Numbered from the stretch's first letter, positions 1-19,267 are shown. The stretch: 46,030 bases of DNA from Syntrophothermus sp. (GCA_050260975.1 JBLNCV010000193.1:1-46030), one strand, 5' to 3'. Program-made: numbers and translations. Notes: generated by a model not told the origin, from the letters alone.

Positions 1-248
1 GCGTAAAAGCCCATCAGCAAGGTGGCAAAGGCGGATGCGACGGCGGTAGCCACAAAGGCCGCATCCCGGTTCATCCCGGCGTCTTTTAAGATGTTGGGGT
101 TCACAAAAATGATGTAAGCCAGGGTGATGAAGGTCGTGACCCCGGCTAAGACCTCGGTCTTGACCGTAGTCTTGTTCTCCGAGAGTTTGAAGATCCGTTC
201 CAATAGGCCACTGCTTGGGTTGGTCCCCGTTTCCGGATCTGCTGACAT
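1..248 (-). CDS. Purine permease, NCS2 AzgA/PbuG-type, N-terminal fragment (continues past the window edge)
   Basis: Absent from the ORF track because it runs off the edge. Reverse translation from ATG at 248 gives MSADPETGTNPSSGLLERIFKLSENKTTVKTEVLAGVTTFITLAYIIFVNPNILKDAGMNRDAAFVATAVASAFATLLMGFY. The F.L.E..T.V.TE..AG.TTF.T.AYI..VNP.IL N-terminus is typical of guanine/hypoxanthine/adenine permeases. SD GAAGGGGTG lies 6-7 nt upstream. Confidence 0.8.
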   Translation of the reverse strand, partial: MSADPETGTNPSSGLLERIFKLSENKTTVKTEVLAGVTTFITLAYIIFVNPNILKDAGMNRDAAFVATAVASAFATLLMGFY

Positions 249-356
249 TTGATTCACCCCTTCTGAAATGTAGCTAAGGAGTCCATCTGTCTTGCTTGCT
301 CGACTACTTCAACTACTTTGCAACCTGTTGCCGGGAGCGCCACCCTTGAGCGCTGC

Positions 357-1280
357 TCACCCCTTTCCACGTTTGCTCGTCTGCGCGGCCTGGCCGCGGT
401 AACCAGCCTGGGCCAACGCCTCCAGCATTGCACGCTCAAAGAGCGCCGCCGCCACCATCTTCCGGTATTGGGCCGTCGCCCGGATATCCGTAATCGGATG
501 AATGTTTTCGGCAACCAGTTGGGCTGCCTCCCTGATGATCTTATGGGAAACCGGCTGGCCAATCAGAGCTTCTTCAGCCGCCTTGAGCCTCAACGGCGTG
601 GGCCCGACCGCTCCCAGCGCAATCCGGACCCGTTTGAAGGCCTCCCGGGCCTTTTCCACCTCCACGAAGACCGCCGCGCTGGCCACCGAGATCGCCTGGG
701 CATTTCGCTTGCCGAGCTTGTGGAAGGACGCCCCCTGCCCCGGTTGCGTCTGATCAAAGATAATCTCGCTTATGACCTCGTCCCCGGTGATGGCGGTCCG
801 CCCCGGGCCAAGAAAGAACTCCTCCAGAGGCAGAAATCTCTCCTGGCTGCGCCGGGCCAGCTTCACCCTGGCGCCCAAAACCATGAGCGCCGGCGCGGTA
901 TCCGCGGCGGGAGAGGCGTTGGCCAGATTCCCGCCGATCGTTCCCCGGTTGCGAATCTGCGGCGAGCCCACCACCCCCGCGGCCTGCGCCAGGATCCGCC
1001 CCTTTTCGGCCAGAACGGCGGATTTGGTGAGTTCGGTGTGGGTAACCAGGGCCCCGATCCGGACCCGACCGGCTTCTATAAGAAGGCCACGCATATTCTC
1101 CGCCCCCGACAGATCCACCACCGCCTTGGGCCGCAGCGCCCGCCGGTTGAGCCTGGGAACCAGATCTGTACCGCCGGCCAGAAGGTAGACCCCTTCCCGT
1201 TCACCCCTGTCCTGGTATACAGCCAGGATTGACAGCGCCTCTTCCAGGCTGGCGGGTTGGAGGTAGTCAAACTCAACCAT
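357..1280 (-). CDS. Molybdenum hydroxylase (xanthine dehydrogenase family), FAD-binding medium subunit
   Basis: 307 aa ORF. MVEFDYLQPASLEEALSIL, LLAGGTDLVPRLN and RNRGTIGGNLANASPAADTAP are hallmarks of CoxM/XdhB-type FAD-binding subunits. Confidence 0.9.
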   Translation of the reverse strand: MVEFDYLQPASLEEALSILAVYQDRGEREGVYLLAGGTDLVPRLNRRALRPKAVVDLSGAENMRGLLIEAGRVRIGALVTHTELTKSAVLAEKGRILAQAAGVVGSPQIRNRGTIGGNLANASPAADTAPALMVLGARVKLARRSQERFLPLEEFFLGPGRTAITGDEVISEIIFDQTQPGQGASFHKLGKRNAQAISVASAAVFVEVEKAREAFKRVRIALGAVGPTPLRLKAAEEALIGQPVSHKIIREAAQLVAENIHPITDIRATAQYRKMVAAALFERAMLEALAQAGYRGQAAQTSKRGKG

Positions 1281-1284
1281 CCCC

Positions 1285-2319
1285 TCACACCCCCTTTACG
1301 CCGAAAGCGTTGATTGCGCCGCATTTACCGGCCGTTTTTTCGGCCAGGGCCGCCAGGATCTTCTCCGGCGTGGCGGGCAGGTCGTAGATGCGCACCCCTA
1401 TCGCATCATAAATGGCATTGAGAATGGCAGGAGCAGCGGGAATCAGGGCCGGCTCGCCCACACCCTTGGCCCCATAAGGCCCGCTGGGCTCCTCACTTTC
1501 CACGATCACCGGCATAACCTCCGGCATATCCAGGGAGGTGGGAATCAGATAGGTAGCCATGGACGGGTTGGCAATCCGTCCCATGGCCAGTTGAACCTCC
1601 TCCATCAGGGCATAGCCCAAACCCATGGAAAATCCTCCGGCAATCTGCCCGTCCACGCTGGTGGGGTTCACCGCCCTGCCTACATCATGAGCGGCTACCA
1701 CCCGCAACACTTCCACCTTGCCGGTCTCGGTATCCACCTCCACCTCCACAATCTGGGTGGCAAAGGCATAGGGCCAGTAAGGAGCTCCCTGACCGGTTTC
1801 GGGATCCAGCGCGGTGGTATGAGTCATGGCCGTGCCTTCGCCTACCAGTCGCCTTCCCCGCAGCCGGGCCCAAAAAGCCGCTTCCGCTACAGGCAGGCTC
1901 TTTTGCGGGAAGCCCTTGACCATGATCCGGTGGTCTTTGAGCACCAGCCCATCAGCAGTGTTTACACCCAGTTCCCCGGCCGCCCACTCCAGAAGCGGCT
2001 GCTTCGCAGCCTGCGCCGCCTTTCGCACGGCGTTTCCGCCGATGTATGTCACCCTGGTTGCGGCGGTGGTTCCCGCATCCGGGGTTACATCGGTATCTCC
2101 GGTGATCACGGTGATCTCTTCCGGGGTCAAACCCAGCTCTTCCGCGGCGATCTGGGCGAAGATCGTGTTGGACCCCTGCCCGACATCCACCGCTCCTACC
2201 AGCACCGAGGCCGTGCCATCGTCGTGGATTTCCACAAAGGCACTGGCCGCATCCGGAAAGCCATTTCCGTAACCCGTGCCGTAAAGCATGCAGCCGATCC
2301 CGACTCCACGCTTTTTCAC
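1285..2319 (-). CDS. Molybdenum hydroxylase large subunit, C-terminal half encoded as a separate polypeptide
   Basis: 344 aa ORF. GQGSNTIFAQIAAEELG, AHDVGRAVNP, GGFSMGLGYALMEE and YGAKGVGEPALIPAAPAILNAIYDA match the second molybdopterin-binding domain of xanthine-dehydrogenase-family large subunits. The GTG start overlaps the stop of the upstream ORF (GTGA). Confidence 0.85.
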   Translation of the reverse strand: MKKRGVGIGCMLYGTGYGNGFPDAASAFVEIHDDGTASVLVGAVDVGQGSNTIFAQIAAEELGLTPEEITVITGDTDVTPDAGTTAATRVTYIGGNAVRKAAQAAKQPLLEWAAGELGVNTADGLVLKDHRIMVKGFPQKSLPVAEAAFWARLRGRRLVGEGTAMTHTTALDPETGQGAPYWPYAFATQIVEVEVDTETGKVEVLRVVAAHDVGRAVNPTSVDGQIAGGFSMGLGYALMEEVQLAMGRIANPSMATYLIPTSLDMPEVMPVIVESEEPSGPYGAKGVGEPALIPAAPAILNAIYDAIGVRIYDLPATPEKILAALAEKTAGKCGAINAFGVKGV

Positions 2320-3707
2320 CCCGAATCACGCCCCTTTTCCCCCGCCCTGGAACCTTCGCCCGGCGGGTCTGATGTGCCACGCCCGGCCACATTCAGCCTG
2401 AAAGCCTCCGCCGCCCGGCGCAGGGTCTCCTTAAGCCCGACGCTGGACTCCAGAAGCTGTCCTGTACCGGTCATCGAACCCACCTGCAAAGCATTGCGCA
2501 CCCGGATGGTAAAGGGATGAATACCCAGCGCCGCGGCAATCTCATCCATCTGGCCTTCGTAAGCGATCGCCGGCTGCGGCGCGCCGAACCCCCGCATAGC
2601 CCCTGCAAAAGGAATGTTGGTAAAGACCGCATAGGCATCAACGGCCACATTGGGAATTTCGTAAGGGCCGGTGGCATGCACAGCCGCCTTGCGCAAGATA
2701 TTGATCCCCCAGGAGGCATAGGCCCCGGTGTTCCCAATGATTGTGGCTTCCAGGGCGGTAAGCTTCCCGTCCTTTGTGGCCCCCGTCTTGTATTTCATGA
2801 TCATTGGATGCCGTTTGCAATGGGCTAAGACCGACTCTTCGCGGGAATAGACCATCTTCACCGGCCGCCGGGTCTTCCAGGCCAGAAGAGCCGCATGCCC
2901 CTGGAGGGTAAGATCTTCTCGGGCGCCGAAGGCCCCTCCGATGGCCGTGGCCACAATGCGAACCTGGTTCACCCCCACGCCGAGGATCCTGGCTACCGCC
3001 GTTCGATCATAGTGGGGGTATTGGGTCGCCACCTGGATCACCACATGCCCCCGTTCATCCACTCGAGCCACTGCTGCTTCGGGCTGCAAAAAAAGATGTT
3101 CCGTCATCTGGGTGGTGTACGTATTTTCGATGATTACATCGGCCCGAGCAAACCCCTTCTCCACGTCCCCCTTCCGGATCCGCTGGTGGTGCAGGATGTT
3201 TCCCGGCCAATCTTCGTGCAGCTGCGGCGCGCCTGGCTGCATGGCCGCTACCGGGTCGAAGATCGGCGTCAGTTCCTCATATTCCACCTGGATAAGCTCG
3301 ATTGCCTCCGCGGCCGCCTCCCGGCTCTCCGCTGCCACAACAGCGATGGGATCGGCGGCGGACTTTACAATTTTGTCCGCCAGAACCGGCTGGTCCTGGA
3401 AGAGGACCCCGTGGCTGTTCTCGCCGGGTACATCTTTTCCGGTCAAAACCGCGCAAACCCCGGGCACGTGGGCCGCCCGGCTGGTATCAATGCGCAGGAT
3501 CCTGGCATAAGGGTATTTGGACCGCAGGGTCATGCCGTAAAGCATATCCGGCAGGTAGATGTCCGCCGGATACCTGGCCTGACCGGTAACCTTGGCGATT
3601 CCATCAATGCGCCGGGCCGGCCGCCCCACCACACCAACGCCAGCGCCGGCACTTGCCGCTCTTCCGGAAACGCCGGCTGCGTCCCCTTTTGCTGCTTCAA
3701 CCGTCAT
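2316..3707 (-). CDS. Molybdenum hydroxylase large subunit, N-terminal half encoded as a separate polypeptide
   Basis: 463 aa ORF. RIDGIAKVTGQARYPADI, AIGGAFGAREDL, GNTGAYASWG and GAMRGFGAPQ are the a/b-hammerhead and first MoCo-binding domain motifs. The ATG overlaps the stop of the 2Fe-2S subunit gene (ATGA). Confidence 0.85.
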   Translation of the reverse strand: MTVEAAKGDAAGVSGRAASAGAGVGVVGRPARRIDGIAKVTGQARYPADIYLPDMLYGMTLRSKYPYARILRIDTSRAAHVPGVCAVLTGKDVPGENSHGVLFQDQPVLADKIVKSAADPIAVVAAESREAAAEAIELIQVEYEELTPIFDPVAAMQPGAPQLHEDWPGNILHHQRIRKGDVEKGFARADVIIENTYTTQMTEHLFLQPEAAVARVDERGHVVIQVATQYPHYDRTAVARILGVGVNQVRIVATAIGGAFGAREDLTLQGHAALLAWKTRRPVKMVYSREESVLAHCKRHPMIMKYKTGATKDGKLTALEATIIGNTGAYASWGINILRKAAVHATGPYEIPNVAVDAYAVFTNIPFAGAMRGFGAPQPAIAYEGQMDEIAAALGIHPFTIRVRNALQVGSMTGTGQLLESSVGLKETLRRAAEAFRLNVAGRGTSDPPGEGSRAGEKGRDSG

Positions 3708-4255
3708 TGCCCGACACCCCCTTTGCCGTCCGGGTTGAGGTCGCTTTGGGCATCCGCCCTGGATGCCAATGCGGCTGCCGCCGTCTTGCCAGCCACGCTC
3801 TCGATAGCGTCCACAATCTTGCTATAACCGGTACACCGGCAGAGGTTGCCTGAGATAGCCACCCGAATCTCCTCCCTGGTAGGCGCCGGGTTGGCATCCA
3901 TTAAGGCTTTGGCCGCCAGAACCATTCCAGGCGTACAATAACCACACTGAACGGCGCCGTGGTCCAAAAATGCCTGCTGGATCGGGTGTAATTCTTGTGT
4001 TGTCCCCACCCCCTCGATGGTGATGACTTCGTGTCCGGCGACCTCCATGGCCATCACCAGGCAGGAGTTTACCGGAGTGCCGTCCAAAAGGACGGTGCAA
4101 GCCCCGCAGTCGCCCTCCCCGCATCCCTCCTTGGTACCGGTCAACTGCAAAACATCGCGCAGGAGATCGATCAAGCGCAGGTTAGGGGGAATGGTAACCT
4201 GCACGTCCCGACCGTTGATCTTCACCTGTAAAAGGCGCTCGCCCTTTGTTTCCAT
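3704..4255 (-). CDS. Molybdenum hydroxylase small subunit, 2x[2Fe-2S]
   Basis: 183 aa ORF with CGEGDCGACTV, CGYCTPGM and CRCTGY cysteine clusters. Carries a roughly 30 aa Ala/Gly-rich C-terminal tail. Confidence 0.92.
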   Translation of the reverse strand: METKGERLLQVKINGRDVQVTIPPNLRLIDLLRDVLQLTGTKEGCGEGDCGACTVLLDGTPVNSCLVMAMEVAGHEVITIEGVGTTQELHPIQQAFLDHGAVQCGYCTPGMVLAAKALMDANPAPTREEIRVAISGNLCRCTGYSKIVDAIESVAGKTAAAALASRADAQSDLNPDGKGGVGQ

Positions 4256-5084
4256 TGGCGTTGACCCCCTTTAAGCCGTGTTGAGCGGCCACGATTGCCT
4301 CCAACACTCCTCCCCCGATAGCTCTGGCCTTATCGGAGATGGAAAAGCAATATGAACGTTCCCCTCTGGGATCGATGTCCCCCACCTTCATCCCTGCGGT
4401 AACCCTCAGGCCCTCGCGGAGGATCCCCCGGAGCACTCCGGAGATCTTCGCCTGTACCTCGACCTTTCCGGCACTCTCCACATAAGCAACCGGGTCTCCG
4501 GCCGCAACCCGATCCCCAATGGCCGCAACCGGCCTGAAGATCCCTTCCTGTGGCGCCCGCACCACCCGTTCCGCGGCAAAACCGCCGACTGGTTCAGGTA
4601 TCCCGGTATCCGGCTCGGCCTGCCCGTCCCAGATTACTTTGCCTAGATTGTGCCCTCGTCTGGTCTCCACCACCGCATGGACATCCAGACCGGCGGTAAA
4701 TCCCGGGCCGAGCCCAATCACCAGCGGAGCCTGATCCAATCGGGTGCCGAGGTTGCGTTTGGCCAAAATAGCATCTACCAATACCATTGGGGTAAGTTTT
4801 GCGATGCTTCGCCCCTCCGGATCCACCAGCACCGGTAGCATTTCCTGGGCCAGCGTCCGGAGCGCTTCGTCTACAGATCCGGCCAGCAGGGCGGTAACAC
4901 CCTCAACGGCCGCCCGTCCTTCATAGACCGCTTCCGCAAAGGCTACAGCACGCCGGATGACCGTCGGCTGAGGGAGCTCCAGAATAACCGCCCGAAAACC
5001 GGCGGACCACAAGCGATGCGCCACGCCACTGGCCAGATCCCCACCACCCCGGATGACCACCAATGGTGCTTGTTTTGCAGGCAA
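4182..5084 (-). CDS. yqeB: YqeB-family selenium-dependent molybdenum hydroxylase maturation protein (putative)
   Basis: 300 aa ORF with a TTG start preceded by GGGGTGG. The VVIRGGGDLASGVAHRL Rossmann-like N-terminus, the length and the overall pattern resemble YqeB/EF2563-type proteins as I recall them. It lies between xdhC and the hydroxylase genes. The 3' end overlaps the 2Fe-2S gene by 74 nt. Confidence 0.6.
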   Translation of the reverse strand: MPAKQAPLVVIRGGGDLASGVAHRLWSAGFRAVILELPQPTVIRRAVAFAEAVYEGRAAVEGVTALLAGSVDEALRTLAQEMLPVLVDPEGRSIAKLTPMVLVDAILAKRNLGTRLDQAPLVIGLGPGFTAGLDVHAVVETRRGHNLGKVIWDGQAEPDTGIPEPVGGFAAERVVRAPQEGIFRPVAAIGDRVAAGDPVAYVESAGKVEVQAKISGVLRGILREGLRVTAGMKVGDIDPRGERSYCFSISDKARAIGGGVLEAIVAAQHGLKGVNANGNKGRAPFTGEDQRSGRAGYHSP

Positions 5085-5165
5085 CCTTTCGCCACCCCGC
5101 TCTCCAGCCTCTCCGGGAATCTTGTATTCCGACTTCTCTAAGCCGCGGACGCTCTGACTCCCCGA

Positions 5166-5969
5166 TCACGCCTCCCGGCTTGCCGAAAGCATTCGCCCGG
5201 TCCCGCCGTTTCTGGCCATGATTATTTCCGCGATAATGCTTACCGCGATCTCCGCCGGAGTTTCGGCCTGAATATCCAGGCCTATCGGGGCGTGCACCCG
5301 CTTCAACATTGCGGGATCGATCCCCTTCTCCTCCAGATTGCGAAAGATCACCGCCACCTTTCGCCGGCTGCCCACCATTCCGATGTAACGGGCTTCCGAG
5401 CGTACCGCCCGCTCCAGTGCCGGCTCGTCGCTGTCCGGCGTGAGAATGACCACATATGAAGAGGAGTTCAACGCCATCTGGCCGTCGAAGGCATCCACAT
5501 ACCCGGCCCGCACAACCCGCACCCCGGCGGGGAAACGATCCTCCCGAGCAAACTCCGGCCTGGGGTCCACCACCGTCACCTCAAAATCCAGCATCGACCC
5601 CATCGCGGCCAATGGCGCCCCGATGTGCCCCGCACCAAGGATAATCAACCGGGGTGGGGGCGGGATCACCTCCACAAATAGTTCCGTCGTCCCACCGCAG
5701 TTCATGTGCAACCCACCCGGCTTGTTCTTGTCCAATTCGTACCGGAAGACCCGGGAAGAGCCCTCCTGGATGGCTTGCCGCGCATCCTGAACGGCGGCGG
5801 CCTCCACCGGCCCACCACCCACCGTCCCCCAGGTGCGGCCATCGGAAAGCACAATCATTTTAGCTCCGGTGTGGCGCGGGGTCGAGCCCCTGGCGCTGAT
5901 CACCGTCACCAGGGCCACGGTCTGGTTATCCTTTAGCAATTCCGTGACTTTTTGGAAGATGTCCAGCAC
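5166..5969 (-). CDS. xdhC: XdhC/CoxI-family molybdenum cofactor insertion chaperone
   Basis: LDIFQKVTELLKDNQTVALVTVISARGSTPRHTGAKM and GGGPVEAAA, followed by the Rossmann motif RLIILGAGHIGAPLA. Start placed at GTG 5969 (SD GAAGGTGG upstream) rather than at the ORF-track start 6119, which would overlap mocA. Confidence 0.8.
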   Translation of the reverse strand: MLDIFQKVTELLKDNQTVALVTVISARGSTPRHTGAKMIVLSDGRTWGTVGGGPVEAAAVQDARQAIQEGSSRVFRYELDKNKPGGLHMNCGGTTELFVEVIPPPPRLIILGAGHIGAPLAAMGSMLDFEVTVVDPRPEFAREDRFPAGVRVVRAGYVDAFDGQMALNSSSYVVILTPDSDEPALERAVRSEARYIGMVGSRRKVAVIFRNLEEKGIDPAMLKRVHAPIGLDIQAETPAEIAVSIIAEIIMARNGGTGRMLSASREA

Positions 5970-5979
5970 ACAACCACCT

Positions 5980-6594
5980 TCAACTTTCCCATCTCGCTCG
6001 CGCGGCCCGATAGTCTTCAAGGGTGTCAATGTCCACGCAGATTCCGGCAGAATGCGTTTCAAGCACAACCACATCTTCCGGATGTTTATCCAGCAGCACC
6101 TTCCCGCCTTGATCGCCATCCAGACGCATCAGTTCCGGGGCCCAACGCATGTCAAACAATACCGGGTTCCCCCGTACCCCGTGGTAACTCGGTACAATAA
6201 TAGAGCCCGCCCCCGAGCGGTATTCATCGATCAGGGCATCCAAAACCGCAGCCTCTACAAAAGGTTGGTCTCCAAGCACAAAGACCGCGGCGCTGGTTCG
6301 CGGCGGGACCGCGCGCAAGCCGGCGCGTACCGAAGTACTCAACCCTTTTGCGTAATCCGGGTTGTGCACCACAAAAACGCCGTTGGCCCGCCCAATTTCG
6401 GCCACCTCCCGGTGGCCGCAACCGGTTACCAGCAATGCCTCGCCCACTTGCGAAGCCAGAACCTGGCGGATCACCCATTCCACCATCGGCCTGCCGCCCA
6501 GAGGCATGAGAAGTTTCATCCGCGCCGGATACATACGCCGGGATCGGCCCGCCGCCAGGATTATGGCTGTAACCCCCGGAGTACGGCCCACCAA
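5980..6594 (-). CDS. mocA: MobA-like nucleotidyltransferase, probable molybdenum cofactor cytidylyltransferase
   Basis: 204 aa ORF. AIILAAGRSRRM, KLLMPLGGRPMV and VLGDQPFV are NTP_transf_3/MocA-type motifs. SD GAGGGGGTGG lies upstream of the TTG/GTG start. Confidence 0.75.
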   Translation of the reverse strand: MVGRTPGVTAIILAAGRSRRMYPARMKLLMPLGGRPMVEWVIRQVLASQVGEALLVTGCGHREVAEIGRANGVFVVHNPDYAKGLSTSVRAGLRAVPPRTSAAVFVLGDQPFVEAAVLDALIDEYRSGAGSIIVPSYHGVRGNPVLFDMRWAPELMRLDGDQGGKVLLDKHPEDVVVLETHSAGICVDIDTLEDYRAARARWES

Positions 6595-6609
6595 CCGATC
6601 GCCACCCCC

Positions 6610-7491
6610 TCATCGGATCGTTACCCATTCGATGACAGGATCCGGAAGGCCCACGTGACCCAAAAGAAATCCCTGGATATTGGTTTCCTGTATATTCTCC
6701 CGGCCGAAAAGCACGGCCCGGGCAAGTTCCCGTGCCGCCGCCAGGCCGGCCTCATCTTCCACTTTATTGATCAAAGGCACCACCGCCGCTCCAGGCGGCA
6801 CCCCCTTGCACAAGCCGTTCGGGTGCAGGAACAAGTCCACCAGGGCCTGTGCAGTAACCCTCTCCCCCCGTGACAATCCCGTCAATTGAGCCACCAGTTC
6901 CGGCCGGTGCACATAAGCCTCTGTAAGAGGCTTATCCCAGGCATCCCTTCCCAAAACCGGAATCACGAGCCCAGTCGAAGCGGGAATGACCGGTTCGTGC
7001 GGCCCCGGAGCCTTGAGCGGCCGCCCGCGGGCTCCATCGGCCTCCACCAGAATATACTTGACGTGGTGAAAGAGCGCTTGTGACAGACGGTCAATCCAAT
7101 CCGGCGGGATCCCGCGCAACTTGGGCCGGTCTTTGCCGCCATCGTGCAATCCCGCCGCCACCATGATCCGGAGAGCCCGCCTGGCAGCCTGCGCCTGAAC
7201 AACACCTCCGGCTAAGATCTCTTGCAGGGCTTGCAGAATCCGCCCTTCCAGCACCGGATACTCATCCGCCAACACCAGACGGTCCACTTCGCTGGCCCTG
7301 GGCGCAAACATGGCCGTGGTCGTGGTAAGCACCACCGGCCCGGCGACAGCCGCCAGTTCCGCCGCCAGCACATACAAAGCTGTGGTCTTCCCGCCCGCCC
7401 CGGTAAAGGATATAACCCGGCAAACATCCTGGCCCGAAGCCGCTCCAAATTGTTCGGGACCCAGCGCCTCGAGAGCATTAAAAAATTTCAT
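6610..7491 (-). CDS. yqeC: YqeC-family selenium-dependent hydroxylase accessory protein (putative)
   Basis: 293 aa ORF. ISFTGAGGKTTALYVLA (P-loop-like), VLTTTTAMF and ILVEADGARGRPLKAPGPHEPVIP match my recollection of the YqeC family. Confidence 0.7.
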   Translation of the reverse strand: MKFFNALEALGPEQFGAASGQDVCRVISFTGAGGKTTALYVLAAELAAVAGPVVLTTTTAMFAPRASEVDRLVLADEYPVLEGRILQALQEILAGGVVQAQAARRALRIMVAAGLHDGGKDRPKLRGIPPDWIDRLSQALFHHVKYILVEADGARGRPLKAPGPHEPVIPASTGLVIPVLGRDAWDKPLTEAYVHRPELVAQLTGLSRGERVTAQALVDLFLHPNGLCKGVPPGAAVVPLINKVEDEAGLAAARELARAVLFGRENIQETNIQGFLLGHVGLPDPVIEWVTIR

Positions 7492-11770: not shown

Positions 11771-12178
11771 TTAGGACCTCCTTCTGTTCGGCTTTTCCTT
11801 ATTGGTCTCTTCTACAACCCTGGCTTCCTTTTCATTTCCCACTCTGGCTTCTTTCTCGTTTCCCCGGGATCTTTGGATCACCGACTCCCGCGTCTCCAGA
11901 TTCTGCACCAGATCTTCCATCTGCTCGTGCGGCCGGGGAATTACGTGAACCGACAGCACCTTTCCCACTCTCTCGGCCGCTGCCCTCCCGGCGTCCACCG
12001 CGGCCTGAACCGCGGCAACTTCGCCCTCCAGCTTGGCGGTGATGCTCACCGCTTTCCCCGCCCCAATCACCCTTTCGTAGCCCAGGAATTCCACCCGGGC
12101 GGCTTTCGTGGCCGCATCCACCGCGGCCACCGCCGTGGCAAAACCGATGGTCTCAATCAGGCCAAGGGCACCGGGCAT
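11771..12178 (-). CDS. BMC-H shell hexamer with a charged, repeat-containing C-terminal extension
   Basis: [37 protein letters not shown]...[10 protein letters not shown] is a BMC domain. It is followed by a roughly 45 aa tail containing GNEKEARV twice. Confidence 0.9.
11816..11863 (-). repeat. 2 x 24 nt tandem repeat encoding [16 protein letters not shown] in the BMC-H tail
   Basis: Minus-strand codons gga aac gag aaa gaa gcc aga gtg / gga aat gaa aag gaa gcc agg gtt, read directly from the sequence. Confidence 0.85.
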
Positions 12179-12192: not shown

Positions 12193-12654
12193 TTAAAACG
12201 CCGGTTCCCGGCGCAAACAATGATTACGTGCAAAACACGCCAAGATCTCCCGGACATAATCCGCATGATACGGCGCTTGCCACCGTTCCTCCAGTTCCGA
12301 CGCCAACTCCTCAAGCTCCCCCCTGGTGTAACGGTAAGGCTCCAGGATGTCCCGGAGCTTCTCCTGGACGGCCGGAGTCAAGCTCTCCGCTTCCACCGCC
12401 AGGTGAAGATACCTGGCGACTTCAAGCTGGCCCCGGTTTTCCGCCAGTGTAGCCAGTTGCACCAGCGGCGCAAAGGTTCCAGCCGGCCGGTTGGGTTCCA
12501 CAACTGCCTTGCCTCCACCGGGACGGGCAAGCGTTGCCTCCGGAACAACGACCTCCCCTGCACCGGCATGGACCGGCCTGGAATCAGCCAGCAACCCGGG
12601 ATTTTCCGCCAAAACCTCTTTGATCAATTGAATCAGGGTACTTTTGGCGATCAT
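12193..12654 (-). CDS. Hypothetical BMC-locus protein with an N-terminal encapsulation-peptide-like helix
   Basis: MIAKSTLIQLIKEVLAENPG is an amphipathic helix followed by a Pro/Gly linker, in the style of PduP/PduD encapsulation peptides. I do not recognise the C-terminal domain. ATG 12654 lies behind AGGTGAGG. An alternative GTG at 12663 overlaps the upstream stop. Confidence 0.6.
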   Translation of the reverse strand: MIAKSTLIQLIKEVLAENPGLLADSRPVHAGAGEVVVPEATLARPGGGKAVVEPNRPAGTFAPLVQLATLAENRGQLEVARYLHLAVEAESLTPAVQEKLRDILEPYRYTRGELEELASELEERWQAPYHADYVREILACFARNHCLRREPAF

Positions 12655-12659: not shown

Positions 12660-13640
12660 TCACCTGCGCAATTCATCGAGCAGTCCGATACCGACCGATT
12701 TGGCCGCGTCAAGCGCGTTACGGACCGCGGCTGGCGCTCCGGAAACCGTAAGCCACACTTCATTGGAGAAAGCTGAAAGATTGGACGGCCCGAGGTAATG
12801 CGTCGCCTCGACTTTGGCCGTCTTAACCGCCACGTCGGCCATCAAGAGACCAACCCCGGCGGGCGCGCCAATCATGATCCCAAAGGCCTGATCCGGCGTC
12901 GCATTGAAAGCCATGGCCAGCGCTCCGGCGGCCCTGGCGGTGTAATGCACCTCCACAGCCCCCACGTCCGAGGAGGTAACCTCGGTAAAATAATGATCCA
13001 CCGCCGCCAGGCCGATCTGCACCGCGCGGGTCACGTCCGCAACGTCGGGACCGCCGAACAGGATGTAGACGCCGTGCCCCGGCCCACCTAACCCGTCTCT
13101 GGCCATCTGAAGGGCCAGAATCTGTGAATTGGTGGCTTTAACCGCCTCATCCGCCGCCATGATCTGTGGCGCCGCGCCCAGCCGGGAACTGAGTATTCCG
13201 ATGGCGTGGTACCGTTCATCAAGCCCCATCTTGGCCCGCAGGCTCCGCTCCAGATTGGGGATGACCAGACCGATGGTTCCACCGGCAGCCGTGCCGATCA
13301 CCTCTTCCCGGCGGCGGCCGCCACCCGCCACCTGAATGGGATGCTGTACCGGTAGGCCGGTTGGCGCCCTTTTAACCGCCTGAGATATCTGGCCCCGCAC
13401 CAGGCTTTGAGTTGGGTTTGGCGCCGTGCCTTGCGCCGGAGATGGCAACGCCTTTTTCCCGGCTCCTGGTTCGACAGGCTGTAACGGGTTGCGCGCAACC
13501 GGGTACTCATCGGGCAACAAGCTTTTTCCTTCCCCAAAAGCGGAACTTTGCCCAAAATCAGCTTTCAGCCTGCTTGCGGAAGAAGAGCCGGTCCGCCTGA
13601 GGATCTCCGCCATGACCTTCTGCACCAGAGGATCCGCCAA
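12660..13640 (-). CDS. BMC-T shell trimer, PduB-like (tandem permuted BMC domains), with a long N-terminal extension
   Basis: The C-terminal roughly 210 aa (GTIGLVIPNLERSL...HAIGILSSRLGAAPQIMAADEAVKATN...GPGHGVYILFGG...HYTARAAGALAMAFNA...GAPAGVGLLMADVAVKTAKVE...FSNEVWLTVSGAPAAVRNALDAAKSVG) follow the PduB pattern. The N-terminal roughly 115 aa have the helix DPLVQKVMAEILRR followed by a Pro-rich linker. Confidence 0.85.
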   Translation of the reverse strand: MADPLVQKVMAEILRRTGSSSASRLKADFGQSSAFGEGKSLLPDEYPVARNPLQPVEPGAGKKALPSPAQGTAPNPTQSLVRGQISQAVKRAPTGLPVQHPIQVAGGGRRREEVIGTAAGGTIGLVIPNLERSLRAKMGLDERYHAIGILSSRLGAAPQIMAADEAVKATNSQILALQMARDGLGGPGHGVYILFGGPDVADVTRAVQIGLAAVDHYFTEVTSSDVGAVEVHYTARAAGALAMAFNATPDQAFGIMIGAPAGVGLLMADVAVKTAKVEATHYLGPSNLSAFSNEVWLTVSGAPAAVRNALDAAKSVGIGLLDELRR

Positions 13641-13713: not shown

Positions 13714-14013
13714 TCATTCCTGACCCGATTCGTCGACAACAGGCAACATCTTGGCCACCTCGCTGTTGGGGCTGGGGATCACGTTCACGGAGATCACTTC
13801 TCCCACCTGCATGGCGGCTTGTTCACCGGCCTGGGTGGCGGCCTGCACCGCCGCGACTTCACCCTGGACGGTGATGCAGATCAGCCCGGAACCTACCTGC
13901 TTGTAATCGATAATCTGCACATTGGCCGCCTTGACCATGGCATCCGCCGCCGCAATGGCCGCGGGCAGGCCCCTGGTCTCCACAAATCCCAGCGCTTTGC
14001 GCAACTGACTCAC
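13714..14013 (-). CDS. BMC-H shell hexamer
   Basis: [57 protein letters not shown] is a canonical BMC domain. Confidence 0.95.
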   Translation of the reverse strand: MSQLRKALGFVETRGLPAAIAAADAMVKAANVQIIDYKQVGSGLICITVQGEVAAVQAATQAGEQAAMQVGEVISVNVIPSPNSEVAKMLPVVDESGQE

Positions 14014-14050: not shown

Positions 14051-15403
14051 TCACCAGCCGTCCTCCAGATAGTCCTCCAACCGTATCCGGTCGCTCCCCG
14101 GAATCACCGGTCGCTGGAAGACCTCCGCCGCGTTCAGCGGGTAAGTGGCATCGATCCCCATCTTGGCCGAGTACCCCCGCAGGTTGTTGGACGGATCCAG
14201 CCCATTCCCACGGGCGCCGGGAATGATCACCACATCCTGGTCGGCCTGGACCCGGCTGGCGATCGCCCATTCCACCTCAAAGGGGTCGAAGATGTCCACG
14301 TCGTCGTCCACAACTACCACATGCTTCACGTCTTTATTGCTGGCAAGAGCCGCCATGATGGCGCTCTTGCCCTCACCCTCGTACTTCTTCTGGATGGAGA
14401 CGATGGCATGGAAACGTCCGCTGCCGGCCATGGTAAGGTGTACGGCCTTCACGTCCGGCACGATATGCCGGACGTGCAAAAAGAGCAAAACCTCTCGCAT
14501 CAGGGCATTGGGCAACTTGTGTTCAAAACTGGAAGGAAAGATCGTCTGGAAGATCGGGTTATTCCGGTGTGTAATCGCGCTGATCTCCACCACCGGCTGC
14601 TCGGAGGCTGGTCCGTAATACCCGGCCAGCTCCCCGAAGGGCCCTTCCTTATACCGCACGTAGGGCAGCATCCGGCCTTCCAGCACGATCTCCGCCTCAG
14701 CCGGCACCTCCAGATCCACCGTCCGGCAACGCACCAGTTCCACCGGCTGGCCGGCGAGAGCACCCGCCACGTCGATCTTGTCCAGGCCGAAGTGCTGGGT
14801 GCTGAGTTGCGAGGCCAGGGTAATGATCGGGTGCACCCCGAGCATCACCGCCACCTCGAGAGGCCGGTTTTGCGCCTCATAGTCGCGGTACATCTGCATC
14901 AGGCCCGGCGACTCGATGAGAATCGACAGCCGGTTGCCACCGTTGACCTGCATCCGGCGGATGGACGTGTAGCGTCGGCCCCCCGCCGGATCCTTCACGA
15001 TCAACACCCCGGCGGTGATAAAGGGCGCCGAGTCCTTTTCGTGAAAAGTGGGCACGGGGAAGAGCTTCGGGATGTCTATTCCCCTGGTGATGACCGTCTC
15101 CTGGACCGGCCCGCCGGAGACCACCCGGCTCGGCAAAGGCGAGGAGATGGCTTCAATATACTTGGGGATGAGCTCATCAACCTTCACCCCCAGGGTCTCG
15201 GCAACCCGCCGGCGATCCCCGCAAAGCCCCGCCGCCACCGGCTGGCTATAGCCCTGCACATGTTCAAAGAAGATCGGGCGAGTTCCTTTAAACTTGTTCA
15301 CCAGGGCGCCCAGTTCGAATCTGGCATCCACCGGACGCCTGACGATTAACAGGTCGTTCTTGCGCTTCAGGTTTTCCAGGTGCTTGCGCAACGAGAGGGT
15401 CAT
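14051..15403 (-). CDS. UbiD-family prFMN-dependent (de)carboxylase
   Basis: 450 aa ORF. The N-terminal LRKHLENLKRKNDLLIVRRPVD and the length and pattern throughout fit the UbiD family. It sits directly downstream of ubiX. Confidence 0.85.
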   Translation of the reverse strand: MTLSLRKHLENLKRKNDLLIVRRPVDARFELGALVNKFKGTRPIFFEHVQGYSQPVAAGLCGDRRRVAETLGVKVDELIPKYIEAISSPLPSRVVSGGPVQETVITRGIDIPKLFPVPTFHEKDSAPFITAGVLIVKDPAGGRRYTSIRRMQVNGGNRLSILIESPGLMQMYRDYEAQNRPLEVAVMLGVHPIITLASQLSTQHFGLDKIDVAGALAGQPVELVRCRTVDLEVPAEAEIVLEGRMLPYVRYKEGPFGELAGYYGPASEQPVVEISAITHRNNPIFQTIFPSSFEHKLPNALMREVLLFLHVRHIVPDVKAVHLTMAGSGRFHAIVSIQKKYEGEGKSAIMAALASNKDVKHVVVVDDDVDIFDPFEVEWAIASRVQADQDVVIIPGARGNGLDPSNNLRGYSAKMGIDATYPLNAAEVFQRPVIPGSDRIRLEDYLEDGW

Positions 15404-15432: not shown

Positions 15433-15984
15433 TTAGTTCCCCCAGCGGGGAAAGATATCGTGGTCGATCTCCAGCACATCCAGGATCTTGCCCACCACAA
15501 AAGTGATCGCCTGGGCCAGATCCCGGGGCCGGTGATAGAAGGCCGGCGAGGCCGGGAGGATGTGGGCGCCGGCTCTTGCCAGCCGCAACATATTCTCCAG
15601 GTGGATTACATCCAGGGGGGTCTCCCTGGGCACCACCACCAGTTTCCGGCCTTCTTTGAGCATCACATGGGCGGAGCGGGTCAACAGGCTGTCCGACAAA
15701 CCCCCGGCCAAGGCCCCCAGCGTATGCATGGAGCAGGGAACCACAACCATGGCCTCCGCGCGAAACGAACCGCTGGCCAGTGGGGAAAACAGGTCGTCCA
15801 CCTGATGCAATCGGGCAAAACGGCCAAGATCCCGCACCATTAGCCCACATTCGTGGCGCAGAGTTCGCTCGCCCATGGACGTCACCACCAGATGCGTCTC
15901 AATCTGTAGATTTTCCAGCGCCTGTAACAGGCCCACGGCATAGATAGCGCCACTGGCTCCGGTGACACCCACCACGACCCGCAT
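15433..15984 (-). CDS. ubiX: UbiX flavin prenyltransferase (prFMN synthase)
   Basis: MRVVVGVTGASGAIYAVGLLQAL...VVPCSMHTLGALAGGLSDSLLTRSAHVMLKEGRKLVVVPRETP is the classic UbiX/Pad1 sequence. ATG 15984 follows SD AAGGTGGG. Confidence 0.9.
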   Translation of the reverse strand: MRVVVGVTGASGAIYAVGLLQALENLQIETHLVVTSMGERTLRHECGLMVRDLGRFARLHQVDDLFSPLASGSFRAEAMVVVPCSMHTLGALAGGLSDSLLTRSAHVMLKEGRKLVVVPRETPLDVIHLENMLRLARAGAHILPASPAFYHRPRDLAQAITFVVGKILDVLEIDHDIFPRWGN

Positions 15985-16040
15985 TTGCAACCCACCTTAC
16001 AATCCGCCACAATCAGCCCGTAGAAATATTCCAGAAAATT

Positions 16041-16063: not shown

Positions 16064-16082
16064 TAAGACCGCCCCAACCAAT

Positions 16083-16646
16083 TCAAGCGGTTTTGGCCTT
16101 CTCTTTTGCGAACTCCTTCTTATACTCGTCCACCGTCATGATCCGGGCGAAGAGGGCCATATCCCGCAACCCGGCCTGGTGCATCTCCTCATCCTTGGAA
16201 GCGCAACCGTCGCTGATGGCGATCACCCGGTAAGCATGGTAGAGCGCCTCGGAAGCAGTGCTCCTCACGCAGACGTTGGTCCACACGCCAGTGACCACCA
16301 CCGTGTCTATCCCTTCCTCGCGGAGGTACAGGTCCATATCAGTGTACGTGAATGAACTATGCCGTCTCTTCTGGACCACATAATCCTTGTCGCTCGGGCG
16401 CAACTCGGGCACAAAGTCCGAACCCCAGGTGCCTTTGATGGCATGCACCGGCCGCACCTTGAAATCGGCGTCGCCCACCCGGTGCGCCTCCTGGACAAAG
16501 ACCACGTGGATGTCGTTCTCATGGGCAAAATCCACCAGTTCCCGGATCTTCGGAATGATCTTCTGCCCGTCCGGGCAGAAGAGGGCCCCTTTGGGGTCCA
16601 CAAAGTCATTCAACATGTCGATGACCAAAATAGCGTGCTTGCTCAT
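16083..16646 (-). CDS. Isochorismatase-family cysteine hydrolase (RutB / N-carbamoylsarcosine amidase / nicotinamidase-like)
   Basis: 187 aa ORF. AILVIDMLNDF (Asp), VVQKRRHSSF (Lys) and VVTGVWTNVCV (nucleophilic Cys) form the D-K-C triad. Confidence 0.85.
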   Translation of the reverse strand: MSKHAILVIDMLNDFVDPKGALFCPDGQKIIPKIRELVDFAHENDIHVVFVQEAHRVGDADFKVRPVHAIKGTWGSDFVPELRPSDKDYVVQKRRHSSFTYTDMDLYLREEGIDTVVVTGVWTNVCVRSTASEALYHAYRVIAISDGCASKDEEMHQAGLRDMALFARIMTVDEYKKEFAKEKAKTA

Positions 16647-16708
16647 AGCTATGCCTCCTCTGGCTCACTAACCTTCACACCCGACCTTCAGGACGCAATC
16701 ATCGCGGC

Positions 16709-18121: not shown

Positions 18122-18193
18122 TGTTCCTTCCTCCCTTGTCCAGGTATTTTTATTTACGGCTTACGCTGCCAACCGTAAAAGTATGCCGTTTTA

Positions 18194-19096
18194 TCACAGC
18201 CCGTACAGGTGATTCTCGAGAATCTGGTTCCGGTCAAACCCCTCAAGTTGCAGGAAGTATTCCAGCGAATTAACCAGCGATTCCATGGGCACCACGCCCA
18301 CCAGTTGGGTGCCCACCACTGGCACGCCGTAGCGGGCCGCCTCCATCTTGATGACCTCAAAAGTACGGTAGAGCGGCGTAGCCACGTAATCAAACATGTT
18401 CATGGAGACCACCACCTGCTTGCGTTCCTCAAAACGCAGGCCCACCGAGCGCACGGTGGTAAAGCCGCCGCTGGGCCCGCGCACAATCCTGGCGATGGAT
18501 TTGGCAATCTCCAGGTTATCCGTACCCAAAATGACGTTGAAAGCCACCAGCGGGTTGGTGCCGGCGCTGACGATCACCGCCCCGGCGGTAGGATGCAAAG
18601 CGGCCGGCCCGATGTCCGGCGCCCGCTCCGGCGTGTGCGCCACCTTTTTGAGCCCCTCGTACTGACCCTGGCGTATGTAATCCAGAACCTTGCGCTCCGG
18701 GGTGCGGGCATTCTCGCCGGTAAAGTAGACGGGCACCTTAAACCTTTTATAGACTTCCTGGCCGATCTCTTCCGCCAGGTTCACACACTCCCCTAGCGTG
18801 ATGTTTTTGAGAGGAAAGATGGGAATGGTATCCTGGGCGCCGATACGCGGATGGGAGCCGGTTTGTTCCTCCATATTGATAAGTTCGATGGATTTGCCCG
18901 CCATGTTCAGAAGAGCTTCTTTCAGCGGCTGCGGCTGGCCGATGAGCGTCACCACCGTCCGGTTGAAGTCGGGGTCGGGGGCGTAGTCCAGGAGTTTCAC
19001 TCCGGGAATGTTGCGCGCCTGATCCACCACGGCTTCGATTACCTCTTTGCGGCGGCCGTCGCTGAAGTTCGGCACCGCCTGAATGTACTTCTGCAT
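18194..19096 (-). CDS. Formiminotransferase (FtcD N-terminal domain type, stand-alone)
   Basis: 300 aa ORF. MQKYIQAVPNFSDGRRKEVIEAVV...DPDFNRTVVTLIG matches the glutamate formimidoyltransferase domain. There is no cyclodeaminase domain. SD AGGGAGGGA lies upstream. Confidence 0.85.
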   Translation of the reverse strand: MQKYIQAVPNFSDGRRKEVIEAVVDQARNIPGVKLLDYAPDPDFNRTVVTLIGQPQPLKEALLNMAGKSIELINMEEQTGSHPRIGAQDTIPIFPLKNITLGECVNLAEEIGQEVYKRFKVPVYFTGENARTPERKVLDYIRQGQYEGLKKVAHTPERAPDIGPAALHPTAGAVIVSAGTNPLVAFNVILGTDNLEIAKSIARIVRGPSGGFTTVRSVGLRFEERKQVVVSMNMFDYVATPLYRTFEVIKMEAARYGVPVVGTQLVGVVPMESLVNSLEYFLQLEGFDRNQILENHLYGL

Positions 19097-19113
19097 ACCA
19101 GTCCCTCCCTGTA

Positions 19114-19141
19114 AATGTATGAGGCGTGGAATGTATGAGGC
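19114..19141 (-). repeat. Direct repeat GCCUCAUACAUU x2 in the 5' leader, containing anti-SD-like CCUC
   Basis: The plus strand has aatgtatgaggc at 19114-19125 and again at 19130-19141, just upstream (in RNA sense) of the GGGAGGG SD of the formiminotransferase gene. Confidence 0.7.
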
Positions 19142-19162
19142 ATGCCAGGTCCCCAGAAATCA

Positions 19163-19205
19163 AGCCAAAATAAATGAGAGAGACGCAATCAGCATCCCTC
19201 TCATA
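19163..19205 (-). terminator. Intrinsic terminator forming the riboswitch expression platform
   Basis: The RNA AUGAGAGGGA-UGCUGAUUGCG-UCUCUCUCAU forms a 10 bp stem and is followed by UUAUUUUGG. Its 5' arm is the 3' strand of aptamer helix P1, so the two structures are mutually exclusive. Confidence 0.75.
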
Positions 19206-19267
19206 GCCAGGCGGTTTACGGCTGCCCGGTAGAAACTCTCGGCCCATATCGCCGAGGATATATGAGA
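19199..19267 (-). promoter_or_regulatory. Purine riboswitch aptamer, guanine/hypoxanthine/xanthine class (C at the specificity position)
   Basis: Minus-strand RNA: UCUCAUA UAUC CUCGGC-GAUAUGG-GCCGAG AGUUUCUAC CGGGCAG-CCGUAAA-CCGCCUG GC UAUGAGA. Compared with the B. subtilis xpt G-box, L2 AUAUGG, J2/3 GUUUCUAC, L3 CCGUAAA and the J3/1 C before UAUG are all conserved. P1 has 7 bp and P2 has 6 bp. Confidence 0.85.

Follow-up and report, generated by a model that had tools for sequence, protein, structure and literature searches.

Positions 1-19285 of the window (the whole 46,030-nt, or 46-kb, stretch of DNA that was analyzed) hold a real operon on the minus strand in which microcompartment shell genes are paired with putative enzymes for an oxygen-independent route from xanthine to glycine. 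The best overall explanation, held with considerable confidence, is a microcompartment operon of the XAU (BUF1) type which would run the Rabinowitz xanthine pathway in an uncultured, spore-forming member of the Bacillota. As judged by its sequence, the locus is a further example of a published type, called BUF by Axen (2014; PMC4207490) and BUF1 by Sutter (2021; PMC8217296); the name XAU and the same Rabinowitz pathway are found in Ravcheev (2019; PMC6620236). A preliminary description, made from the DNA alone, had pointed to a xanthine-utilization BMC class in the literature, and this class does exist. The interpretation was right but not new as implied, both locus type and pathway assignment having been published before. 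Added here are the co-occurrence of hydrolases and shell in 80 loci, the identification of two "unknown" proteins, a PduB-type BMC-T, signs of a selenium hydroxylase, and a conserved Phe at the predicted hexamer pore.

The operon and its host

All 23 genes were located (Table 1), on one strand and with a largest intergenic gap of 108 nt, in agreement with the preliminary figure of at most about 110 nt; one correction to the earlier gene list is a 74-nt overlap between the YqeB ORF and the 2Fe-2S gene. Every family assigned was matched in Pfam, NCBIfam, or Rfam profile searches, including those for which a Pfam check had been proposed (PF00936, PF03319, PF01977, PF00857, PF04199, FTCD_N). The reported absence of aldehyde-metabolosome enzymes near the locus also stands: aldehyde dehydrogenase, phosphotransacylase, alcohol dehydrogenase, and glycyl-radical enzyme were all missing from the scanned ORFs of the entire window, over which the locus is, like the XAU/BUF1 type, without metabolosome core enzymes.

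Signs of a Bacillota host in the window include a GerA-type germination operon, YheC/D, and RecD2, and its closest relatives are Bacillota MAGs. The sequence thus places the host in an uncultured, spore-forming, high-GC lineage of the Bacillota, within the Firmicutes range of XAU/BUF1; among named relatives, Carboxydothermus comes closest (66% identity in UbiD).

Table 1. Features of the operon in order of transcription, with the matches on which each assignment rests.
Feature	Position	Strand	Evidence
Purine riboswitch aptamer, guanine-I type	19184..19285	-	RF00167, 74.9 bits (gathering score 37)
Intrinsic terminator with a 13-bp stem and a 5-nt loop, followed by TTATTTT	19166..19204	-	Fold calculation
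Formiminotransferase (FTCD_N + FTCD)	18194..19096	-	Pfam 5e-66; TIGR02024, 356 bits
Cyclic amidohydrolase, hydantoinase/allantoinase type, 470 aa	16709..18121	-	Amidohydro_1 5e-34
Isochorismatase-family hydrolase	16083..16646	-	PF00857, 9e-52
UbiX flavin prenyltransferase, prFMN maker for UbiD	15433..15984	-	Flavoprotein/UbiX 2e-43; TIGR00421, 217 bits
UbiD-family decarboxylase, N + core + C domains	14051..15403	-	Pfam 9e-63
BMC-H 1, hexamer shell protein	13714..14013	-	PF00936, 1e-27
PduB-type BMC-T, two BMC domains	12660..13640	-	NF011944 PduB, 299 bits (cut-off 173)
Orphan PduE-like protein	12193..12654	-	PF02287, 34.8 bits (cut-off 25)
BMC-H 2	11771..12178	-	PF00936, 7e-24
BMC-H 3	11476..11769	-	PF00936, 5e-29
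Shell-module accessory protein, partial flavoprotein domain	10488..11444	-	PF02441, 8e-9
BMC-P, pentamer vertex protein	10232..10501	-	PF03319 EutN_CcmL, 2e-30
Adenine-deaminase-family amidohydrolase	8295..10214	-	Adenine_deam_C + Amidohydro_1, 8e-63
Cyclase-family metal hydrolase	7535..8224	-	PF04199, 1e-36
Cofactor maturation genes YqeC, MocA, XdhC, YqeB	4182..7491	-	Pfam + NCBIfam
Four-subunit molybdenum hydroxylase	357..4255	-	Fer2_2, MoCoBD_1, MoCoBD_2, FAD_binding_5
NCS2-family purine permease gene, 5' part	1..248	-	Cut by window's left edge

Candidate enzymes for the pathway

The proposal of one candidate for each Rabinowitz-pathway step holds at the level of families, by profile matches and by structural and family analogies. 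In the first step, the 470-aa cyclic amidohydrolase, nearest to hydantoinase and allantoinase, would open the pyrimidine ring of xanthine as a putative xanthine amidohydrolase ("xanthinase"). The isochorismatase-family protein, whose top NCBIfam matches, both below cut-off, are RutB (ureidoacrylate amidohydrolase) and BiuH (biuret amidohydrolase), would then take off the ureido group as a 4-ureido-5-imidazolecarboxylate amidohydrolase. With prFMN from UbiX, the UbiD-family protein may decarboxylate 4-amino-5-imidazolecarboxylate; its nearest structure is PDB 6H6V of Pelotomaculum thermopropionicum (1e-138), which we take to be HmfF, a decarboxylase acting on five-membered heteroaromatic acids. 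The adenine-deaminase-family protein is the candidate for deamination of 4-aminoimidazole, and the cyclase-family protein, with isatin hydrolases (openers of five-membered lactams; 5NMP, 8e-19) as its nearest solved structures, for hydrolysis of 4-imidazolone to formiminoglycine. The FTCD-type transferase would complete the route as a glycine formiminotransferase, producing glycine and 5-formimino-THF.

Molybdenum hydroxylase and putative purine uptake

The hydroxylase consists of a 2Fe-2S subunit, an FAD subunit, and a molybdopterin subunit split in two (463 and 344 aa), and is preceded by genes for YqeC (Pfam 1e-39; TIGR03172, 171 bits against a cut-off of 73), MocA (MobA-like NTP transferase, 4e-40; TIGR03310, 177 bits, slightly under the cut-off of 186), XdhC (Pfam 5e-43), and YqeB (TIGR03309, 365 bits against a cut-off of 220). 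The four genes make up the set that marks selenium-dependent hydroxylases; YqeB and YqeC beside a molybdenum hydroxylase, together with the split four-subunit enzyme, point to selenium dependence. The best structural match (3HRD_A, 1e-119) is the nicotinate dehydrogenase of Eubacterium barkeri, which likewise has four subunits and a molybdopterin subunit in two parts; unlike that enzyme, the one here sits amid putative genes for purine rather than nicotinate degradation. The split layout and YqeB/YqeC liken it to the selenium-dependent xanthine dehydrogenase and purine hydroxylase of purinolytic clostridia, and it is probably one of these two, in which case it would interconvert hypoxanthine, xanthine, and urate.

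The truncated permease gene starts at position 248; the 85 aa that it encodes here share 59% identity with a 440-aa orthologue matching PF00860 (Xan_ur_permease), and the product would import purines. Permease, hydroxylase, and a guanine-class riboswitch predicted to be an ON switch together suggest the link of the operon to purines.

A riboswitch in the leader

The leader aptamer has the three-way junction, U51, and C74 of guanine-I (xpt type) riboswitches, with junctions of canonical length (J2-3 = GUUUCUACC, J3-1 = GGCUA) and no insertions in either in the RF00167 alignment; the consensus is broken by A24U and, at the base of P2, by a C-A mismatch. Its class was judged against published descriptions of xanthine-II and guanine-II (PMC9295807), and a xanthine-II variant was rejected: both U51G and the junction insertions are absent. 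The ligand is probably guanine, hypoxanthine, or xanthine.

The 5' arm of the terminator, ATGAGAG, doubles as the 3' strand of helix P1 in the aptamer. Calculated fold energies are -44.8 kcal/mol for the terminator and -36.3 kcal/mol with P1 enforced; P1 forms when the aptamer is folded by itself. Because the two helices share this strand, the modeled expression platform is predicted to be ligand-ON: with ligand bound, P1 would sequester the strand otherwise used by the 13-bp terminator, allowing read-through. Terminator and P1 are mutually exclusive in pbuE-like ON platforms as well, and purines are predicted to switch the operon on. Guanine riboswitches mostly act as OFF switches for genes of biosynthesis or transport, whereas this one would activate a catabolic organelle operon. 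A search of seven further loci yielded no riboswitch upstream of the operon. The purine link recurs in five loci of Bacilli, where a C74 purine riboswitch lies upstream of the divergently transcribed hydroxylase operon; four of them bear the name Cytobacillus, and the fifth (L048) is deposited as Pseudomonas sp. ISL-84.

Shell and accessory proteins

The shell ORFs pass the BMC profiles, with three single-domain and one two-domain PF00936 proteins, one PF03319 protein, and a PduB model match above cut-off, as for XAU/BUF1 shells; the assembled shell would consist of the three BMC-H, the PduB-type trimer, and the pentamer. The BMC-T is extended at its N terminus by about 110 aa, made up of a conserved helix (M-A-D-P-L-V-Q-K-V) followed by a linker, and this helix is common to the gene in the same position of other XAU loci. 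The C-terminal tail of BMC-H 2 is charged and includes GNEKEARV repeated in tandem. BMC-H 3 carries a KIGFGL motif at the predicted pore position, with Phe there in 62 of 63 loci.

Two proteins had been described as bearing encapsulation-peptide-like helices and as otherwise unknown; the helices are there, but both proteins now have recognizable domains. In the first, a variable linker joins a 23-aa helix that is invariant (MIAKSTLIQLIKEVLAENPGLLA) to the C-terminal half of a diol/glycerol dehydratase gamma (small) subunit (PDB 9VIG_D, 1.6e-8); the protein forms just four clusters at 50% identity among the 1.84 billion representatives searched. Its sequence identifies it as an orphan remnant of PduE, the gamma subunit of diol dehydratase, that carries an encapsulation-peptide-like helix. 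In the second, an N-terminal helix is followed by a flavoprotein domain of the HFCD type, which is degenerate (EpiD 3QJG, 2e-3), and by a conserved C-terminal motif, VIT..D...I.V..G.IITPLARD.A.E.GI.I, in an alignment of 14 sequences in which Thr and Ala are invariant and Leu and Asp present in at least 90%; the protein also weakly matches the C-terminus of PF15953 (PDU_like). Comparison of lengths with homologues revealed no obvious terminal encapsulation peptide in the six pathway enzymes. Cargo may be tied to the shell by the non-enzymatic helix bearers: the PduB N-terminus, the PduE-like remnant, and the flavoprotein-like protein.

Conservation in related loci

The comparison set was 80 loci recovered with a UbiD profile as best matches to the UbiD of this locus; classical purinolytic clostridia fall outside it. 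Shell genes are present in 63 of the 80 and absent from 17. The 63 shell loci have the amidohydrolase in 53 (61-77% identity), the isochorismatase-family hydrolase in 59, the deaminase-like protein in 60, and the cyclase-family hydrolase in 57, with hydroxylase subunits in 35-37 and a permease within 10 kb in 18; none of the 17 shell-less loci has the pathway hydrolases. Gene content thus shows the putative pathway hydrolases to occur strictly with shell genes, for this UbiD clade, to which the result is limited because the 80 loci are best matches to this UbiD.

UbiD adjoins shell genes in all 63 Bacillota loci, the shell module is flanked in every case by UbiD and the deaminase-like gene, and the deaminase-like gene follows BMC-P wherever both appear among the blastp matches listed. 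The locus has the enzyme set of XAU/BUF1, and its order is kept across the 63. BMC-H 3 is the most conserved gene: across Bacilli and Clostridia it is 82-93% identical in every locus except one truncated contig, versus 46-81% for the enzymes, which indicates strong purifying selection. The majority of loci with shell genes come from Bacilli that are aerobic or facultative, such as Cytobacillus, Paenibacillus, Neobacillus, and Virgibacillus.

What the shell may do

Gene order and strict co-occurrence suggest that the shell would enclose, at minimum, the UbiD, deaminase, and lactam-hydrolase steps, keeping chemically labile 4-aminoimidazole and 4-imidazolone beside the enzymes that use them; two other enzymes, the hydroxylase and the THF-dependent transferase, would probably act outside it. 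A possible but rather unlikely alternative leaves the pathway unchanged and gives the shell another purpose: bringing the slow, hard-to-drive opening of the xanthine ring into close quarters with the next hydrolase, which would pull the reaction on, or, in aerobic or facultative hosts, shielding oxygen-sensitive parts (prFMN-UbiD, 4-aminoimidazole). It would suit the xanthinase kcat of 0.1 per second quoted in PMC12507026, the preponderance of aerobic or facultative hosts, and the position of the amidohydrolase and isochorismatase genes, which come immediately before UbiX and UbiD within one operon. The shell genes, however, adjoin UbiD and the deaminase-like gene, not the ring-opening enzyme. 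As for shielding, BMC shells are not known to be established barriers to oxygen.

That some other N-heterocycle is degraded (allantoin or hydantoins, pyrimidines, nicotinate, or adenine only), with the purine reading a coincidence of broad families, is improbable, despite the names on offer. Curated models would call the 470-aa amidohydrolase allantoinase (TIGR03178, 374 bits against a cut-off of 358), the deaminase-like protein adenine deaminase (TIGR01178, 480 against 472), and the formiminotransferase glutamate formimidoyltransferase; allantoinase AllB or dihydroorotase is the amidohydrolase's name in curated models and public records, orthologues are still publicly named "allantoinase AllB" or "UbiD family decarboxylase," and the molybdopterin subunit is structurally nearest nicotinate dehydrogenase. 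Against these stand the guanine-class riboswitch and the NCS2 permease, the pairing of an aromatic-acid decarboxylase with a formiminotransferase, compatible with the imidazole route only, and the same purine assignment in PMC6620236; uricase, allantoate-degrading genes, and nicotinate-fermentation enzymes (6-hydroxynicotinate reductase, enamidase) are absent from the scanned ORFs of the window.

Still less probable is a shell that is a relic of a propanediol-type compartment, with no working organelle and enzymes free in the cytoplasm: it would account for a PduB-type BMC-T and a PduE remnant lacking large and medium dehydratase subunits, and papers citing the "xanthinase pathway" make no mention of a shell, but the H, T, and P set is complete with intact ORFs, BMC-H 3 is better conserved than the enzymes (one truncated contig excepted), and all 63 pathway loci carry shell genes.

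Relation to known systems

BUF, BUF1, and XAU loci have the same enzymes (amidohydrolases, deaminase, UbiD carboxy-lyase, isochorismatase, formiminotransferase, molybdenum dehydrogenase), Firmicutes hosts, and the same proposed Rabinowitz pathway as found here. This copy differs in its uncultured high-GC lineage, in YqeB and YqeC selenium-cofactor genes, in a purine riboswitch immediately upstream, and in a canonical PduB-type BMC-T and orphan PduE-like protein confined to a small clade. It lacks the extra 445-aa COG0402-type deaminase (named from NCBIfam match PRK07228) common in other loci, and the cyclase-family hydrolase apparently used here was not noticed in the accessible portion of Ravcheev's scheme.

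PMC12507026 credits Tong et al. (2023; Cell Chem Biol 30:1104; PMID 37164019) with identifying, in Clostridia and Bacilli, the gene cluster of a "xanthinase pathway," with the same O2-independent route from xanthine to glycine by hydrolysis and decarboxylation. Its reported distribution matches that of the loci here, which suggests that its enzymes may be of the same families. The earlier statement that biochemical characterization was lacking no longer holds for the enzymes; for the shell it stands, PMC10470539 still calling it "functionally uncharacterized."

A PDU metabolosome was rejected as the identity of the locus: of the PduCDE signature there is only the C-terminal PduE-homologous fragment, with no PduC or PduD in the window. 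Unlike PDU, the locus is also without B12 chemistry, aldehyde dehydrogenase, PduL, and PduQ, and its predicted cargo is a hydrolase set and a decarboxylase. Shared with PDU are a PduB-family trimer with an N-terminal tether-like helix and a PduE-homologous domain after an encapsulation-peptide-like helix, and the gene order (BMC-H, PduB, ..., PduE) resembles what we take to be that of pduA-pduB-(pduCD)-pduE.

A Probable Purine-Degradation Operon of a Known Microcompartment Class

On the minus strand of the window, a purine riboswitch leads an operon of 23 co-directional genes in which no intergenic gap exceeds 108 nt, and Pfam and NCBIfam profile matches bear out all of the gene families named in the preliminary description. 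The pathway-type enzymes are an FTCD-type formiminotransferase, a 470-aa hydantoinase/allantoinase-type amidohydrolase, an isochorismatase-family hydrolase, UbiX and UbiD, accompanied by an adenine-deaminase-family protein, a cyclase-family hydrolase, YqeC, MocA, XdhC and YqeB; the shell set comprises three BMC-H, one two-domain BMC-T passing the PduB model, and one BMC-P. A four-subunit molybdenum hydroxylase, its molybdopterin subunit split, and the start only of an NCS2 permease gene are also within the window. The rest of the window holds no aldehyde-metabolosome core enzymes and carries ordinary genes of spore-forming Bacillota, including a GerA-type germination operon, YheC/D ATP-grasp proteins, M42 peptidases and RecD2.

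The operon had been read as a shell-associated Rabinowitz pathway (xanthine to formiminoglycine to glycine). That interpretation is right, yet a rediscovery, because both the locus type and the pathway are already in print. Axen et al. (2014; PMC4207490) described the BUF locus type with the same list of enzyme families and as a possible third paradigm of BMCs; Ravcheev et al. (2019; PMC6620236) gave it the name XAU and put forward the same pathway, and Sutter et al. (2021; PMC8217296) retained it as BUF1. The compartment involves neither an aldehyde intermediate nor a private pool of NAD or CoA. XAU appears in reviews as a xanthine compartment, and was still termed functionally uncharacterised in 2023 (PMC10470539); a 2025 paper (PMC12507026) credits a “xanthinase pathway” gene cluster, found in Clostridia and Bacilli, to Tong et al. 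(2023), and puts the kcat of xanthinase at 0.1 per second. Within this known XAU/BUF1 class the window locus is a new and compact member, contained in one operon under a riboswitch predicted to be turned on by purines.

The published pathway has yet to reach annotation. Among orthologues in public records we found only generic or misleading functional names: those of the amidohydrolase (P0135-P0253) are called “allantoinase AllB,” “dihydroorotase” or “L-hydantoinase,” and those of UbiD 2,5-furandicarboxylate, gallate or phenolic acid decarboxylase. With its key enzyme annotated as “allantoinase AllB,” the pathway is invisible to routine genome annotation. The pathway also has applied interest, for the engineering of gut bacteria that clear purines and urate.

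Features of the window and of comparison loci (L handles, from the UbiD profile search) discussed in the text
Feature	Sequence	Positions	Strand
XAU operon with riboswitch	window	1-19285	minus
Overlap of YqeB ORF and 2Fe-2S subunit gene start	window	4182-4255	minus
Deaminase-like protein	window	8295-10214	minus
Insert in deaminase-like protein	window	8868-8933	minus
Flavoprotein-like accessory protein	window	10488-11444	minus
BMC-H3	window	11476-11769	minus
BMC-H2	window	11771-12178	minus
Tandem repeat in BMC-H2	window	11816-11863	minus
PduE-like protein	window	12193-12654	minus
BMC-H1	window	13714-14013	minus
470-aa amidohydrolase	window	16709-18121	minus
GerA-family germination protein	window	19686-21992	
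YheC/D-type ATP-grasp genes and radical SAM gene	window	26016-29874	
M42 peptidase paralogues	window	38895-42063	
PRK07228-family amidohydrolase	L029	18824-20161	
PRK07228-family amidohydrolase	L050	17284-18654	
EutJ-like gene	L004	13354-14163	

Proposed Assignment of Enzymes to Steps

Judged by their nearest characterized relatives, candidates can be proposed for the individual steps. The xanthine ring would be opened by the 470-aa amidohydrolase, closest to L-hydantoinase and allantoinase, and the ureido group probably removed by the isochorismatase-family protein, whose top curated (NCBIfam) matches are RutB and BiuH, both ureido/amide hydrolases; on chemical grounds, 4-ureido-5-imidazolecarboxylate may be regarded as a ring-embedded analogue of ureidoacrylate, the RutB substrate. 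The UbiD protein (closest structure PDB 6H6V) is the likely decarboxylase, and the cyclase protein is the putative lactam hydrolase, its nearest relatives being the isatin hydrolases, enzymes that cleave a five-membered lactam. Deamination would fall to the deaminase-like protein, closest to adenine deaminase and the sole deaminase candidate in the window operon. XAU loci commonly carry a further amidohydrolase of 445-456 aa, which belongs to the PRK07228 family (5'-deoxyadenosine deaminase by name) and is of COG0402 type; two examples are tabulated, and the window has none. Alignments against solved homologues gave no clear terminal extensions on the enzymes that could serve as encapsulation peptides.

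Between the two domains of the deaminase-like protein lies an insert rich in Gly, His and Tyr, GNTGGHGYAGSAGYGHYGGGHG. It appears specific to the window lineage, since most other loci encode orthologues shorter by about 35 aa.

YqeB and YqeC, cofactor maturation proteins, exceed their curated cut-offs, and the molybdopterin subunit has a match at 1e-119 to PDB 3HRD, a selenium-containing nicotinate dehydrogenase. On these markers we predict that the hydroxylase of the operon is selenium-dependent. The 2Fe-2S subunit gene starts within the YqeB ORF, with an overlap of 74 nt (28 nt in the nearest relative).

Linkage of Pathway and Shell

A UbiD profile search of species-representative genomes yielded 80 loci, the best matches to the window UbiD. 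Shell genes adjoin UbiD in 63 of them, all from Bacillota except one in a record titled Pseudomonas sp. ISL-84 (L048), which matches Cytobacillus loci. Among these 63 are found the amidohydrolase (53 loci), isochorismatase (59), deaminase-like gene (60) and cyclase (57), none of which occurs in any of the 17 loci without shell genes. Where the contig spans the genes, the order is constant (amidohydrolase, isochorismatase, UbiX, UbiD, shell module, deaminase-like gene), with the cyclase gene after the deaminase-like gene in most loci, and hydroxylase subunits and purine permeases are frequent neighbors. The window organism is an uncultured member of the Bacillota. Its nearest relative, a MAG, has an identical gene order and a UbiD 94% identical; the next are at 66-68%. 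Within the clade sampled the pathway never occurs without the shell, which is an argument for a functional need for confinement.

Shell Module and Its Possible Origin

BMC-H3 is the most conserved gene, with 82-93% identity in all loci but one truncated contig, far exceeding that of the enzymes. In its motif K[IV]G-F-GLV the predicted pore position is occupied by Phe in 62 of 63 XAU loci, the exception being a Tyr; the equivalent residue of PduA is Ser. In all loci the product of the gene that follows BMC-H1 opens with a conserved helix (M-A-D/N-P-L-x-x-x-V) and then a linker, which in the window run on into a canonical PduB-type trimer. In Bacilli loci its C-terminal domain is a cryptic PduB homologue (hhalign probability 96.9%, E 1.6e-10), and these 300-425-aa proteins (L008, L013, L023, L027, L029, L005) have no Pfam BMC match, so that catalogues based on PF00936 would miss them; in Clostridia loci the gene is reduced to its N-terminal part. 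The charged C-terminal tail of BMC-H2 holds a perfect tandem repeat, and such tails differ across loci, at about 100 to 180 aa.

The first of two accessory proteins is made up of a 23-residue helix that does not vary among relatives sharing 67-75% identity, a linker that is hypervariable, and a part equivalent to the C-terminal half of a diol/glycerol dehydratase gamma subunit, the last recognized by a profile search of PDB sequences. This PduE-like family is very rare (four clusters among 1.84 billion representatives), and its AlphaFold model (mean pLDDT 46.5) was too poor for a fold search. The second is found at the same position in 14 of 14 XAU loci examined in detail, and consists of an N-terminal helix, a flavoprotein domain, degenerate here and lost in some lineages, and a conserved C-terminal motif with invariant Thr and Ala and a weak resemblance to the PDU_like family. 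Its profile matches, to EpiD, CoaBC and UbiX, are weak only; a recent origin as a UbiX paralogue was rejected for want of significant pairwise similarity. In the Carboxydothermus islandicus locus (L004), an actin/Hsp70-fold (EutJ-like) gene lies within the shell module and the PduE-like gene is absent.

The window has a BMC-T of canonical PduB type together with an orphan PduE-like remnant. One speculative and rather doubtful possibility is that the XAU organelle arose from a metabolosome of propanediol type in which purine-ring hydrolases took the place of the B12 diol-dehydratase core. Under such a descent, the window lineage would keep ancestral traces in its canonical PduB and orphan PduE gamma-subunit remnant, the invariant N-terminal helix of the latter would have been re-used as a cargo-to-shell adaptor, and Bacilli would retain only the cryptic PduB and Clostridia only the PduB N-terminal tether. 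If true, such a descent, taken with the conserved Phe of the predicted pore and the strict pairing of pathway with shell, would let XAU serve as a tractable model of compartment cargo change, and of the confinement of non-aldehyde intermediates. What the window locus and its comparison add is the strict shell-pathway linkage within the clade sampled, vestiges of PDU type, markers of selenium dependence, a riboswitch predicted to act as an ON switch, and an aromatic residue conserved at the predicted BMC-H3 pore.

Leader Riboswitch

The aptamer scores 74.9 bits against an Rfam threshold of 37, and probably belongs to the common guanine/hypoxanthine/xanthine-binding class, because U51, C74 and canonical junction lengths are all kept; U51 and the junction lengths rule out the xanthine-II (PMC9295807) and guanine-II variants. 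Directly downstream are a 13-bp hairpin and TTATTTT, the 5' arm of the hairpin (ATGAGAG) being the 3' strand of helix P1. In folding predictions the aptamer alone forms P1, and the full leader favors the terminator by about 8.5 kcal/mol. This architecture is predicted to be that of a ligand-activated (ON) switch, which fits a catabolic operon.

No purine riboswitch was found upstream of the operon in seven other loci searched; a regex search placed it only ahead of the divergent hydroxylase operon of five loci from Bacilli, and in one locus from the Peptostreptococcaceae. The Bacilli examples (L015, L017, L019, L020 and L048, at ~4.9-6.2 kb, minus strand), four named Cytobacillus plus the ISL-84 record, have a C74 purine riboswitch preceding genes for 2Fe-2S, MocA, FAD, molybdopterin and XdhC (and permease), divergent from the adjoining XAU operon.

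Other Features of the Window

The G+C content is 60.8% in the operon (1-19096) versus 55.4% elsewhere in the window (19300-46030); horizontal transfer could account for the difference, as could a compositional bias of the operon itself. The GerA-family germination protein, 768 aa in length, is matched by Pfam only from residue 256 onward, which leaves a long and unexplained extension at its N-terminus. Two neighboring YheC/D-type ATP-grasp genes lie beside a lysine-2,3-aminomutase-like radical SAM gene, and three M42 peptidase paralogues are found in tandem elsewhere.
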